64,000 nucleotides of DNA from Escherichia phage vB-Eco-KMB23. The notes below the pieces were generated by a model. It ran no database searches and had not been told where the DNA came from. It worked only from the letters and a program-made list of their open reading frames with translations. Shown here one piece after another: positions 10,989-15,741 of this stretch. The first letter of the stretch is position 1, and every line of letters begins with the position of its first letter. Location: sequence record OR525702.1. One strand, 5' to 3'. A program made the translations under genes and the position numbers.

Positions 10989-11267
10989 TCAAAATGTAAT
11001 TTCTAACCAATCACCATCACGCTGATCACTATTGACTTTAAAGCTAAATCCTTCTTTTCTCAGCCAATCACCAATTTCTTCAGTAATCAATTTATCGCGA
11101 GCAGTACAATAATAACTAAAATATGTTTTACCTTGTTCAGCTGCTTTATTAGCAAGTTCCGAAAAATCTTTAATAAAACACTCTAGCTTAAACTGTTTAC
11201 TTTTAAGTGCTTTTTCACGTAATTGATTAGCAAAAGATTCATTTTCATAAAGATCATACTGTTCCAT
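10989..11267 (-). CDS. hypothetical protein (position of T4 24.2)
   Basis: 92-aa ORF, ATG start, operon context. Confidence 0.6.
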   Translation of the reverse strand: MEQYDLYENESFANQLREKALKSKQFKLECFIKDFSELANKAAEQGKTYFSYYCTARDKLITEEIGDWLRKEGFSFKVNSDQRDGDWLEITF

Positions 11268-11469
11268 TTTTCACCTTTTTATTAATATGCCTTTTTCTAT
11301 AGACAACTTTTTCTCGAGTTTCAAATTTATTCTTAGCAGTCATAGCTCGAGCCCATAATACAGCCACTTCCTTTGCCTGTAAGTTCAATTCACGAGCAAT
11401 TTCAATGAATGACTTTCCAGACTCATGAAGAGTAAACACCACAACCTCAGTTCTCATAATCAATCTCAT
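11254..11469 (-). CDS. hypothetical protein (position of T4 24.3)
   Basis: 71-aa ORF, ATG start. Confidence 0.55.
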   Translation of the reverse strand: MRLIMRTEVVVFTLHESGKSFIEIARELNLQAKEVAVLWARAMTAKNKFETREKVVYRKRHINKKVKNGTV

Positions 11470-11538
11470 GTTATCGAGTTGGTGCCATTATATACATCAT
11501 TTTCTGAGTGTGTTTTGTGTGCTTTCAAAATGAAGAAA

Positions 11539-11552
11539 GGGGCCGAAGCCCC
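11539..11552 (-). terminator. hairpin downstream of hoc
   Basis: GGGGC-cgaa-GCCCC immediately 3' of hoc stop. Confidence 0.6.
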
Positions 11553-11558
11553 TTATGA

Positions 11559-12977
11559 TTATGGATAGGTATAGATGATACCAGTTTCTAAAGCAGTTTT
11601 ATGAATGATGTATCCATTACGTGATTCTTGAACATCAACTTCTGGATAGTCTTTCATCATCTTCTGAAGGGTGTAACGATGCAGGTAGTATTTACTATCT
11701 GGATCTTCAGTTTTCCAATCTTTACCTTCTTCGGTCATTTTTTGGATTTCATCCATAACCCACCAACCGCACCAGATATAAGCCGAAGTACGATGTGGAA
11801 GAGGATGAACATAAGGCAATTCACCTTCTGGTTCTGGAGCAACTTTATCAGTTACCTGAACTTGACCTTCTGCTGTGATAGTTTTGCTATCATAATCAGT
11901 AGCAGTAACAGTTGCAGTAACTTCAATAGTTTGACTTCCAATAGATGATGTATCAACAGTGTATACATTAGTTGACCCTTCTACTGGAGAAGAATCTTTC
12001 TTCCATGAATATTCGATTTGTGCTTCTTCTGGAGCATCCGTAACATTAGCAGTAAATGTAGCCGAAGCATCTTGCTGAACGTTAATAGAAGGAGGAGTCA
12101 ATGTAACCTGTGGATTCATTGTCTTCTTATTAACTGTTAATGATACTTCATTAGAAGTAACTGTTTTTGCGTCATAATCTGTTGCTGTTACTTGCGCTAC
12201 GCATTTAATTCTTTTTACTCCACTTGTAGTTGGAGTATAGCTAAATGTAGCAGAAGTCGCTTCACCAATTTGAGAATCATCTACATACCACTGATACGTA
12301 GCAGATGCCCCATCAGGTTGAGAAGCTAAGGCAGCGGTAAATTCAACGGCTGTTCCAATCACTCCAGCTGGAGGACTATCAGGAGTTACTGCCAAGGTAG
12401 TCGTCTGCGTCTTTTTATTAACAGTCAATGATACTTCATTAGAAGTAACGCTTAGTGCATCATAATCTGCCGCAGTTACTTGAGCTACACACTTGATTTT
12501 TTTAACTCCGCTTGTGTCAGGAGTGTAATTGAATGTAGCGTCAGTTGCTTCGTCTACAGGAGAACCGTCAACGTGCCATTGATACGTAGCGTTTGCACCT
12601 GATGGCTGTGAAGCTAAGGCAGCGGTAAATTGAACGGCTGTTCCGATTACTCCTTCCGGAGGACTAGCAGGAGTTACGGCTAATGTAGTTGTCTGTGTCT
12701 TATTTTGAACCGTGATAGTTGTCGTAGTTTCTGCTGTTTCAGGTTCAGATTCTGCAACTTGATTGGTTGCAACTACTTTAATAGTCTTTTGACCGGCAGG
12801 TCCTTTTAGTACATAACTAAAAGTTGCTGACGTTTCTTCCTGTGGAGCGTCGTCTACAGTCCAAGCATATGTAATAGGTCCATCTCCAGTTTGACCACTG
12901 GGTGTAGCAGTAAACTGCTGAGTCTGATCTATAACTCCAGTAGGTGTTTTAGGAGTTATATCAACTGTAAAAGCCAT
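11559..12977 (-). CDS. hoc: outer capsid decoration protein Hoc, five-domain variant
   Basis: 472 aa; termini match T4 Hoc (376 aa) from memory; contains two adjacent, roughly 80 percent identical 96-aa Ig-like domains. Confidence 0.85.
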   Translation of the reverse strand: MAFTVDITPKTPTGVIDQTQQFTATPSGQTGDGPITYAWTVDDAPQEETSATFSYVLKGPAGQKTIKVVATNQVAESEPETAETTTTITVQNKTQTTTLAVTPASPPEGVIGTAVQFTAALASQPSGANATYQWHVDGSPVDEATDATFNYTPDTSGVKKIKCVAQVTAADYDALSVTSNEVSLTVNKKTQTTTLAVTPDSPPAGVIGTAVEFTAALASQPDGASATYQWYVDDSQIGEATSATFSYTPTTSGVKRIKCVAQVTATDYDAKTVTSNEVSLTVNKKTMNPQVTLTPPSINVQQDASATFTANVTDAPEEAQIEYSWKKDSSPVEGSTNVYTVDTSSIGSQTIEVTATVTATDYDSKTITAEGQVQVTDKVAPEPEGELPYVHPLPHRTSAYIWCGWWVMDEIQKMTEEGKDWKTEDPDSKYYLHRYTLQKMMKDYPEVDVQESRNGYIIHKTALETGIIYTYP

Positions 12978-12986
12978 AAGTTATCC

Positions 12987-13667
12987 TTATTTTAATGTTA
13001 CGAAAGAAGAATTACGTGTTTCACGAATTAGAACTGATCCGTCGCGATTAATGTAATAAATTAAGCTAAATAAAGTTTGGTGTGCTGACGCATGCTCAAA
13101 ACTAGTTGGGTGAGATTTCCAATCCGGAGTTTCAGCAATCCACTGGTAAATCCACCAAGGAACAGTGCAGAATCCTGGATTTTTTCCAATCAGCTGAAGA
13201 TTCGGACTAAAGTTTTCCGGAAGAGTAAATACAGACGGCTTCTCAGATTCAATAATCTCAGCTACAGCCTGTTCGAATTTTTCTTCAACAAAAGGAGTAT
13301 CTTCAATCAAAACATCGGTATTTTCAGGAATTTTATCCGTTTCTACTACTTCAATTTTAATGTCAGATTTAACCGGAGAATCAATCAGAAGTGCTGCCTC
13401 TGGATTGACTTCTTCATCGTCATATTTTAATCCGTCTGCAGCATCAGCAGCATCAATTAAGTCTTTAATAGATAACCCATCAGTCTCTGGCATAGGTTCA
13501 CTAGCGAGCTTCTGGAGGGCTTCTTCAATATCATTAACGATATTATCAAAAGATTTATTCTTTTTGACTTTTATACCAAACTGTTCAGCATATTCAGCTA
13601 ATTTAGCTTTAGCTTCTTTATTATCATCAAGAGCCTTCAGCTCTGCAATATAATCTTTATCTATCAT
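12987..13667 (-). CDS. inh: inhibitor of prohead protease
   Basis: 226 aa, position and length as T4 Inh; SD GAGGA. Confidence 0.8.
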   Translation of the reverse strand: MIDKDYIAELKALDDNKEAKAKLAEYAEQFGIKVKKNKSFDNIVNDIEEALQKLASEPMPETDGLSIKDLIDAADAADGLKYDDEEVNPEAALLIDSPVKSDIKIEVVETDKIPENTDVLIEDTPFVEEKFEQAVAEIIESEKPSVFTLPENFSPNLQLIGKNPGFCTVPWWIYQWIAETPDWKSHPTSFEHASAHQTLFSLIYYINRDGSVLIRETRNSSFVTLK

Positions 13668-13680
13668 AATATTTCCTCAG

Positions 13681-13688
13681 TATAAATA
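13681..13688 (+). promoter_or_regulatory. late promoter motif TATAAATA for uvsW
   Basis: Exact TATAAATA 30 bp upstream of ATG 13718. Confidence 0.65.
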
Positions 13689-13717
13689 TAGATATATTTA
13701 TTACATGGTATTTAGAC

Positions 13718-15229
13718 ATGACTGACATTAAAGTACATTTTTATGATTTTAGTCACGTGAGAATTGATTGTGAAGAAAGTACATTTCATGAACTCCGTGA
13801 TTTCTTTAGCTTTGAAGCTGATGGGTATCGTTTTAATCCGAAGTACAAATATGGCCACTGGGATGGACGAATTCGTCTTTTAGATTATAATCGCCTTCTT
13901 CCATTCGGCTTAGTCGGGCAAATTAAAAAGTTCTGTGATAACTTTGGCTATAAAGCCTGGATTGACCCACAAATTAACGAAAAAGAAGAATTATCAAGAA
14001 AAGATTTTGATGAATGGCTTTCTAAATTAGAAATCTATTCAGGAAATAAAAGAATTGAACCGCACTGGTATCAAAAAGATGCAGTGTTCGAAGGATTAGT
14101 TAATCGTCGTAGAATTCTTAATCTTCCAACATCCGCTGGTAAATCGTTAATTCAAGCTTTGCTTGCGCGATATTATTTGGAAAATTATGAAGGTAAAATT
14201 CTTATCATTGTTCCAACAACTGCCTTAACAACTCAGATGGCTGATGACTTTGTTGACTATCGTTTATTCAGTCATGCAATGATAAAGAAAATTGGTGGCG
14301 GAGCATCAAAAGATGATAAATATAAAAATGATGCACCGGTCGTTGTTGGTACATGGCAAACTGTAGTAAAACAACCAAAAGAATGGTTCTCACAGTTTGG
14401 AATGATGATGAATGATGAATGCCATCTTGCTACAGGAAAAAGTATTTCATCTATCATATCTGGTTTAAATAACTGCATGTTCAAATTCGGTTTGTCCGGT
14501 TCATTACGTGATGGCAAAGCTAATATCATGCAGTATGTTGGAATGTTTGGTGAAATATTTAAGCCAGTAACGACTTCTAAGTTAATGGAAGATGGACAAG
14601 TAACTGAGCTAAAAATTAATAGTATTTTTCTTCGCTATCCCGATGAGTTCACTACTAAATTAAAGGGAAAAACTTATCAAGAAGAAATAAAAATTATTAC
14701 GGGGCTTAGTAAAAGAAATAAATGGATCGCTAAATTGGCTATTAAGCTTGCACAAAAAGATGAAAACGCTTTTGTCATGTTTAAACATGTATCACATGGT
14801 AAAGCTATTTTCGATTTAATTAAAAATGAATACGATAAAGTTTATTACGTATCAGGGGAAGTTGATACCGAAACCCGCAATATAATGAAAACCTTAGCTG
14901 AAAACGGTAAAGGAATAATTATAGTCGCTAGTTATGGTGTATTTTCTACTGGTATTTCAGTTAAAAATCTGCATCACGTTGTTTTAGCGCACGGTGTTAA
15001 ATCAAAAATCATTGTATTACAAACAATCGGTCGTGTATTACGTAAGCACGGTTCTAAGACAATAGCAACCGTCTGGGACCTCATCGATGATTGTGGTGTT
15101 AAGCCAAAATCTGCTAATACGAAAAAGAAATACGTTCATTTGAACTATCTTTTAAAACATGGCATTGATCGTATTCAGCGCTACGCAGATGAAAAATTTA
15201 ATTACGTAATGAAAACAGTTAATTTATAA
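13718..15229 (+). CDS. uvsW: UvsW RNA-DNA/DNA-DNA helicase
   Basis: 503 aa; SF2 helicase motifs (PTSAGKS Walker A, DECH box). Confidence 0.9.
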   Translation: MTDIKVHFYDFSHVRIDCEESTFHELRDFFSFEADGYRFNPKYKYGHWDGRIRLLDYNRLLPFGLVGQIKKFCDNFGYKAWIDPQINEKEELSRKDFDEWLSKLEIYSGNKRIEPHWYQKDAVFEGLVNRRRILNLPTSAGKSLIQALLARYYLENYEGKILIIVPTTALTTQMADDFVDYRLFSHAMIKKIGGGASKDDKYKNDAPVVVGTWQTVVKQPKEWFSQFGMMMNDECHLATGKSISSIISGLNNCMFKFGLSGSLRDGKANIMQYVGMFGEIFKPVTTSKLMEDGQVTELKINSIFLRYPDEFTTKLKGKTYQEEIKIITGLSKRNKWIAKLAIKLAQKDENAFVMFKHVSHGKAIFDLIKNEYDKVYYVSGEVDTETRNIMKTLAENGKGIIIVASYGVFSTGISVKNLHHVVLAHGVKSKIIVLQTIGRVLRKHGSKTIATVWDLIDDCGVKPKSANTKKKYVHLNYLLKHGIDRIQRYADEKFNYVMKTVNL

Positions 15230-15241
15230 GGGCTTCGGCCC
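15230..15241 (+). terminator. hairpin with UUCG loop after uvsW
   Basis: GGGC-ttcg-GCCC then TTT. Confidence 0.5.
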
Positions 15242-15254
15242 TTTGGAGAAAAAG

Positions 15255-15485
15255 ATGTTACTAGAATTTAAACAATTTCTTTATGAAGCTTCTATTGATG
15301 AATTTATGGGTAAAATTGCCTCTTGTCAAACAATAGAAGGTCTAGAAGAACTTGAAGCTTATTATAAGAAAAGAGTTAAAGAAACTGAATTAAAAGATAC
15401 TGATGACATCTCTGTGAGAGATGCTTTGGCAGGAAAAAGAGCTGAATTAGAAGATTCAGACGATGAAGTAGAAGAAAGCTTTTAA
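15255..15485 (+). CDS. uvsW.1: UvsW.1 small protein
   Basis: 76 aa from ATG 15255 with SD GGAG; track ORF begins at upstream TTG 15243. Confidence 0.75.
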   Translation: MLLEFKQFLYEASIDEFMGKIASCQTIEGLEELEAYYKKRVKETELKDTDDISVRDALAGKRAELEDSDDEVEESF

Positions 15486-15540
15486 ATTAAAAAAGGCCCA
15501 ACCGAAAAGGAAGGGCCAAAACTATAGACTAAAGGTCACA

Positions 15541-15708
15541 CTATAGCAAAAGTTGTGTTTCATTTAATTGTTCTTCCGAACTTTCTGAAACTGGTAGTTC
15601 TTTAATGTAATTATAACAAGGCCCAGGATGTACAGGACCTTTGTCTGTTTCAACAACCAATGCAGAATCGATTGGAGTTTTACAGACAACGCAAATCTTA
15701 TCTGACAT
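15541..15708 (-). CDS. small Cys-rich protein (55 aa), uvsY-upstream position
   Basis: ATG 15706-15708 with SD GAGGAG; MSDKICVVCKTPIDSALVVETDKGPVHPGPCYNY; below the ORF-track size cutoff. Confidence 0.6.
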   Translation of the reverse strand: MSDKICVVCKTPIDSALVVETDKGPVHPGPCYNYIKELPVSESSEEQLNETQLLL

Positions 15709-15733
15709 GATTGTCTCCTCTAAATTATATATC

Positions 15734-15741
15734 TATTTATA
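15734..15741 (-). promoter_or_regulatory. late promoter motif TATAAATA (minus strand)
   Basis: Reverse complement of tatttata, 26 bp upstream of the 55-aa ORF start. Confidence 0.5.

Follow-up and report, generated by a model that had tools for sequence, protein, structure and literature searches.

Tandem domain-2 units in the five-domain Hoc head-decoration protein of Escherichia phage vB-Eco-KMB23, a common length variant among T4-type phages

Hoc is the textbook mucus-binding phage protein, the one behind the 'bacteriophage adherence to mucus' model, and in the engineering of T4 vaccines and vectors it is the principal scaffold for display. One monomer occupies the centre of each gp23* hexamer, giving 155 per capsid, and the protein is dispensable for growth. 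Nearly all structural and functional work on Hoc has been carried out on the 376-aa allele of T4. The T4 fibre measures roughly 18 nm (~180 Å), and its capsid-contact residues are Y293, H295, H299, R300, W309 and W310 (PMC10385173). Across Hoc homologues the C-terminal anchor is kept, and the strings of Ig-like domains vary widely, between 1 and 10 domains (PMC10385173, section 3.6). The Hoc of Serratia phage Muldoon (1174 aa, 10 Ig-like domains; PMC10385173) shares the design of a C-terminal anchor and a variable Ig string with the protein described here. However, Muldoon belongs to a different genus and its array is far larger, and the two are likened by design rather than by sequence. Binding to mucin glycans or cell surfaces via Ig-like domains is reported for T4, PNJ-6 and PNJ-9 (PMC9271167, PMC11150434, PMC11853027). 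In PNJ-9, where adhesion was tested experimentally, a three-domain Hoc of 283 aa binds MUC2 via S183/L184/T185 of domain 2 (PMC11853027).

The window analysed here, a 64-kb stretch of DNA from Escherichia phage vB-Eco-KMB23, carries hoc at 11559..12977 on the minus strand. The gene is an intact ORF of 472 aa plus a stop codon, which lies within these coordinates, and encodes a five-domain Hoc head-decoration protein. The DNA source of the locus is a Tequatrovirus (T4-type) phage; a 25-kb stretch is 97.6–98.1% identical to many Tequatrovirus genomes. A phmmer search of PDB sequences matches the protein to T4 Hoc (chain 5vf3_Z, 376 aa) with E = 2e-215, and the protein also matches PHROG 1149, 'Hoc-like head decoration' (6.6e-140). 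The head outer capsid protein deposited for vB-Eco-KMB23 is 100% identical to it. The phmmer alignment to T4 falls into two stretches, the first pairing residues 1–124 with T4 1–124 and the second pairing residues 201–472 with T4 105–376 (gapless, 542 bits), which leaves 96 residues of this Hoc without a T4 counterpart. An earlier note, made from the sequence alone, had described the product as a Hoc with one whole Ig-like domain more than that of T4, and the phmmer and PHROG 1149 matches and the two lengths (472 versus 376 aa) bear this out. The length it gave for T4 Hoc is also correct, both in chain 5vf3_Z and in the 1131-nt hoc CDS of NC_000866; a T4 reference of ~472 aa, which the note had named as the observation that would speak against it, is thereby excluded.

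The protein resembles T4 Hoc (PDB 5VF3, 8T1X; UniProt P18056) in gene position, domain 1, domain 3, the capsid-binding domain at the C terminus and the contact residues. It differs in that T4 has one domain-2 unit, whereas here an extra unit, termed A (aa 93–188), lies between domain 1 and the T4-type domain 2, adding 96 residues. Other 472-aa Hocs, among them those of phiD1, ESh33, ime09, HP3, RB27 and many others, have an identical architecture with point differences only, and the phiD1 gene shows 96.4% DNA identity to the one described here. The PNJ-9 protein has a domain 1 and an A-like domain 2 of the same sequence family, and the MUC2-contact motif is found in both domain-2 units here; it has a single domain 2 and is without domain 3.

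Domain 1 (aa 1–92; 12702..12977, minus strand) aligns to T4 Hoc 1–92 and is modelled by AlphaFold2 as beta strands with a pLDDT of ~84–94. The two domain-2 units follow in series. Unit A (12414..12701, minus strand) is absent from T4 and has a pLDDT of >88. Unit B (aa 189–284; 12126..12413, minus strand) is orthologous to T4 domain 2 and carries a Pfam PKD match at residues 195–253. Domain 3 (aa 285–380; 11838..12125, minus strand) aligns to T4 Hoc 189–284, with Pfam Ig_3 and I-set at residues 289–373, and contains D342, the conserved equivalent of T4 D246, a residue implicated in glycan specificity (PMC9271167, via PMC11853027). The PKD match reaches 36.3 bits (cut-off 23.5) and BiPBP_C is likewise above its own cut-off; the scores of Ig_2, Ig_3 and I-set are slightly under theirs.

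The capsid-binding domain at the C terminus (aa 381–472; 11562..11837, minus strand) is homologous to T4 Hoc 281–376, matches PHROG 21694 and 14282, and is identical to T4 at 263/276 nt with a dN of 0.009. At the positions of the T4 capsid-contact residues this protein has Y389, H391, H395, R396, W405 and W406, none of which varies in the Hoc alignment (47 sequences).

An AlphaFold2 model was built from the same 47-sequence alignment. Residues 1–375 form four all-beta domains with a pLDDT mostly >90, and the repeat boundary 188|189 falls in the linker between strands 182–187 and 194–198. The C-terminal domain is modelled with low confidence (pLDDT 30–65), probably because the alignment is shallow, and the pTM of 0.54 makes the inter-domain geometry unusable. 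The top Foldseek matches in the PDB are four-Ig strings such as those of Sidekick, Dscam and ICAM-5 (E = 1e-12 to 1e-14). The RB49 and T4 Hoc structures are not among the top 50 PDB matches, as generic four-Ig strings outscore them for a multi-domain query. Pfam, the model and Foldseek all indicate an N-terminal string of Ig-like domains of the PKD / I-set type, and both domain-2 units are predicted to be intact beta-sandwich domains.

The two domain-2 units form a tandem repeat at the DNA level. Tandem Repeats Finder reports a period of 288 nt at 12121–12701 (2.0 copies, 78% matches, score 724), and a second repeat search returned the same pair as 12121–12408 and 12409–12696. Each unit begins with KTQTTTLAVTP and ends with VSLTVNK. 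Units A and B are identical at 79/96 residues (82%) and 224/288 nt (78%), in agreement with the figure of about 80% for two adjacent 96-aa units given previously. The remaining pairs of Ig-like domains within the protein share just 25–35 identical residues per ~97–100 aligned positions, and the similarity of A and B is thus far above chance or general Ig-fold likeness. The units are adjacent, of equal length and in frame, and their edges lie in inter-domain linkers. This confirms that a whole Ig-like domain, domain 2, has been copied in tandem and in frame. Very probably, A and B belong to an old tandem array whose 288-nt unit encodes one complete Ig-like (PKD-type) domain.

The differences between A and B are concentrated at third codon positions (9/13/42 for positions 1/2/3). 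By the Nei-Gojobori method the units show a dN of 0.12 and a dS of 1.02, the latter near saturation, and the resulting dN/dS of 0.12 indicates that both copies have long been kept under purifying selection. These values bear on the reading in which the extra unit has no role in the virion and is carried along neutrally, is decaying, or is a tandem-repeat assembly artefact. Relaxed constraint is conceivable, since phages can do without Hoc in the laboratory (PMC3012670, PMC9958956). However, the low dN/dS with its mostly third-position differences, the intact frame, the confidently predicted fold and the recurrence of the same architecture in many independently sequenced phages all oppose a passenger, and copies that are 78% identical are not prone to assembly collapse or expansion. 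This reading is extremely improbable; an assembly artefact or pseudogene is ruled out by the intact frame, the dN/dS and the many independent genomes.

Comparison of synonymous divergence distinguishes the two units. Between this phage and T4, the flanking Hoc domains have a dS of 0.24–0.36. Unit B is identical to T4 domain 2 at 258/288 nt with a dS of 0.27, whereas unit A has a dS of 0.80 to T4 domain 2. Since the value for B is like that of the flanking domains, T4 domain 2 is orthologous to B, and the unit that T4 lacks is A. The duplication had been called an old, fixed event. Its age is upheld by an A/B dS of ~1.0 compared with ~0.24–0.36 to T4 in the flanking domains, but it is not fixed, as copy number is polymorphic within Tequatrovirus.

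A domain-2 dS matrix was assembled from the units of nine hoc genes, in which units A and B of this phage are labelled WIN.1 and WIN.2. The first clade contains WIN.1, RB27.1, L003.1 and UGKSEcP1.1, together with the single units of ADUt and L006, with mutual dS values of 0.15–0.40; unit A itself has a dS of 0.15–0.32 to the ADUt, RB27.1, UGKSEcP1.1, L003.1 and L006 units. The second clade contains WIN.2, RB27.2, L003.2 and UGKSEcP1.2, together with the single units of T4 and L004, with mutual dS values of 0.01–0.47. Between the clades dS is 0.7–1.3. The third unit of the six-domain UGKSEcP1 allele represents a separate type C, with a dS of 0.46–0.84 to all other units. The units are mosaic outside the central region, and at the 70% level no more than 4 positions of the protein tell the types apart, so that the assignment of units to A or B is blurred by gene conversion.

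The six-domain Hocs of UGKSEcP1 and UGKSEcP2 (568–570 aa) have first and second units orthologous to A and B here. In UGKSEcP1 (L024:501-2207, 568 aa), unit 2 matches B at 286/288 nt and unit 1 matches A at 270/288 nt. They differ from the protein described here in carrying the third, more divergent domain-2 unit of type C. Within Tequatrovirus the array thus takes the form of one unit (A or B), two (A-B) or three (A-B-C), corresponding to 376, 472 and 568 aa; three-domain alleles are 283 aa long.

The distribution of these forms was surveyed by a megablast search with hoc against 50,697 phage records, which matched 658 records, and an evenly spaced sample of these (n=60) was inspected. Five-domain genes (1419 or 1425 nt) are present in 18 of the 60, including phiD1, KRT47, ECP2301 and RB27, the last of which is annotated as a 1419-nt gene for a 'large head outer capsid protein'; ime09, HP3 and ESh33 also have a 472-aa Hoc. 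Four-domain genes (1117–1161 nt) are present in 36/60, such as T4, T2, RB10, RB33 and RB51, and three-domain genes (~850 nt) in two (F2 and PNJ-9). Among the best 120 protein clusters at 90% identity, drawn from public genomes and metagenomes, 78 are 376 aa in length, 29 are 472 aa and 8 are 568–570 aa. The five-domain Hoc is therefore a common length variant, carried by roughly one in three of the T4-type phages sequenced; it was already known and is not a discovery. A novelty specific to this phage is ruled out, as ~30% of the sampled records share the architecture and an identical protein has been deposited. A full-text search, which did not cover Sathaliyawala 2010 and Fokine 2011, found no paper on the domain-2 tandem array or the 472-aa allele, and returned only general statements on variable domain number and the three-domain PNJ-9 variant.

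Two irregularities of labelling were seen in the databases. The 32-kb record MG010123.1, 'Staphylococcus phage SAJK-IND', contains a T4-type hoc that is 95% identical to the gene described here, and is probably mislabelled or contaminated. In addition, the names 'endonuclease [Shigella sonnei]' or '[Bacillus cereus]' are attached to some Hoc clusters.

Domain-2 copy number is independent of the flanking Hoc sequence. On a neighbour-joining tree of domains 1, 3 and 4 from 114 proteins, which has low resolution, copy number requires 29 Fitch changes compared with a mean of 32.6 for shuffled labels. Hocs that differ from this one at only 3–5 flank residues have 4, 5 or 6 domains. ADUt is 98% identical over 25 kb and 98–99% identical in the hoc flanks, yet it has a single A-type unit that is nearer to L003.1 than to WIN.1. 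The array is polymorphic, and the pattern fits recurrent reshuffling, whether through unequal recombination, through gene conversion or through the exchange of units from phage to phage. Copy-number variants would arise from unequal homologous recombination between repeats, or from the exchange of units between co-infecting phages, and the highly recombinogenic T4 replication cycle would provide the setting. Aligned in register, A and B are exactly identical over no more than 23 nt at a stretch, a modest substrate for unequal crossing-over.

The earlier note had taken the extra domain to be a gain in this phage. The tandem copy stands, but gain here is not preferred over loss in T4, since the occurrence of single units of type A or type B is explained no less well by losses from an ancestor with two units. 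It is quite possible, though we hold it only tentatively, that the A-B array is ancestral to the sampled Tequatrovirus hoc genes and that four-domain Hocs, including that of T4, are deletion derivatives lacking A or B, such that the domain is 'missing' from T4. Four-domain Hocs are of two non-orthologous kinds, with T4 and L004 carrying B and ADUt and L006 carrying A, and in four-domain protein clusters the central motif is of A type in 71/78 and of B type in 7/78. The synonymous divergence of A and B (~1.0) is also about three times the inter-phage divergence of the flanking domains, and the single unit of PNJ-9 has a dS to A of 0.41–0.66, closer than A is to B. All of these agree with an ancestral pair. 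However, clear single units with an A head and a B tail, which simple unequal crossover should produce and which would be its direct sign, were not found among the units compared. Painting shows instead that A-like and B-like sites are intermixed along single units, with no clean two-part chimeras, a picture that gene conversion or inter-phage exchange could also give.

The same pattern would be expected if A and B had first drifted apart as allelic forms of a gene with one unit and had been joined later. The two-unit gene would then have come from out-of-register recombination of diverged A-type and B-type alleles in a mixed infection, and as the alleles had diverged before joining, the divergence of A and B would be uninformative on the age of the duplication. 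A-only and B-only alleles both circulate, copy number is decoupled from the flanks, and units appear to be freely exchanged, as the case of ADUt illustrates. On the other hand, the A-B order is kept in all five- and six-domain alleles examined, and on average orthology is positional (unit 2.1 versus 3.1, 88%; 2.2 versus 3.2, 86%). The conserved order and positional orthology suggest a single origin of A-B followed by spread, rather than repeated joining, and an origin from two alleles appears rather unlikely. Of the three scenarios, namely an ancestral A-B array with repeated loss, A-B from two alleles, and gain in this lineage, we lean slightly towards the ancestral array.

A comparable change has occurred in the Hoc of the Klebsiella phage Marfa group (471–472 aa; L007:1001-2416, L008:1001-2416), which also reaches five domains by an in-frame tandem Ig-like copy. 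In these proteins, which are ~48–49% identical to the Hoc described here, domain 3 is duplicated and not domain 2, which indicates an independent event. In related Klebsiella and Enterobacter phages, Hoc alleles of 377 aa and 282 aa occur alongside those of 471–472 aa. This parallel points to in-frame gain and loss of Ig-like domains as a general habit of hoc genes.

The genomic context of hoc is that of the T4-type head cluster, with the gene order rnlB / 24.2 / 24.3 / hoc / inh / uvsW as in T4, as judged from ORFs, T4 annotation and PHROG matches. The gene inh, which encodes the prohead protease inhibitor (12987..13667, minus strand; PHROG 1051, 1.4e-102), is on the same strand as hoc and 9 nt upstream of it; the two are probably co-transcribed. 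No exact T4 late promoter, TATAAATA, is present upstream of hoc or inh on the minus strand from 12978 to 15734, and a late-promoter-like sequence with one mismatch, AATAAATA, is found just upstream of inh. The TATAAATA consensus occurs in 20 copies in the window compared with 8.5 expected, and one of these (13681–13688, plus strand) is situated just upstream of uvsW. A strong hairpin resembling an intrinsic terminator (11537..11554, minus strand; AAGGGGC-TTCG-GCCCCTT followed by a T-rich tail) lies 4 nt past the hoc stop and was identified by a terminator scan and from the sequence; the records of Yersinia phages fPS-90 and fPS-2 also list a 'terminator' under this gene.

The flanking genes differ from T4 in small respects. 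In T4, segE (a GIY-YIG homing endonuclease) sits between inh and uvsW; here the gap between these genes is only 50 nt (13668–13717), and segE is thus absent. The 24.3 homologue (11254–11469, minus strand) overlaps 24.2 by 14 nt and is 71 aa in length compared with the 56 aa (171 nt) annotated in T4, which may reflect only a different choice of start codon. The uvsW ORF (13718–15229, plus strand) is 503 aa in length; the T4 RefSeq record annotates 1764 nt and notes sequence discrepancies in this section.

Given an anchor domain that, like its contact residues, is conserved between this phage and T4, the five-domain Hoc would be expected to sit at the centre of the gp23 hexamer as T4 Hoc does. 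Its fibre would reach about one Ig domain beyond that of T4, if the extended shape of the T4 and RB49 proteins applies. The NEVSLT motif that closes domain 2, with the S-L-T of the PNJ-9 contact, appears twice, with S-L-T at residues 183–185 and 279–281, and the protein would present double the domain-2 surface reported to bind MUC2 in PNJ-9. The presence of two motifs makes a change in reach or glycan-binding valency a reasonable hypothesis, and a longer fibre with altered adhesion is plausible. A broader proposal is that domain-2 copy number (1, 2 or 3 units of types A, B and C) is a maintained adaptive polymorphism that would tune the length and glycan valency of the ~155 fibres to mucosal or host surfaces, with unequal recombination supplying variants fast and the parallel domain-3 duplication in Klebsiella phages serving the same purpose. 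This proposal is speculative, and we regard it as doubtful.

The sequences concerned are deposited and variation in the number of Ig-like domains is published, and no new question or mechanism is implied. What is added is modest: A and B are paralogous, and copy number varies independently of the flanking sequence. That the single domain 2 of T4 is paralogous, not orthologous, to the domain 2 of most other four-domain phages does not seem to have been remarked on in the literature searched. Roughly one in three natural hoc genes of Tequatrovirus is the 472-aa allele, and the domain 2 of T4 represents only one of the two old types of paralogous unit. Both points are helpful to know when mucus adherence, immunogenicity or therapeutic behaviour is compared among T4-like phages.
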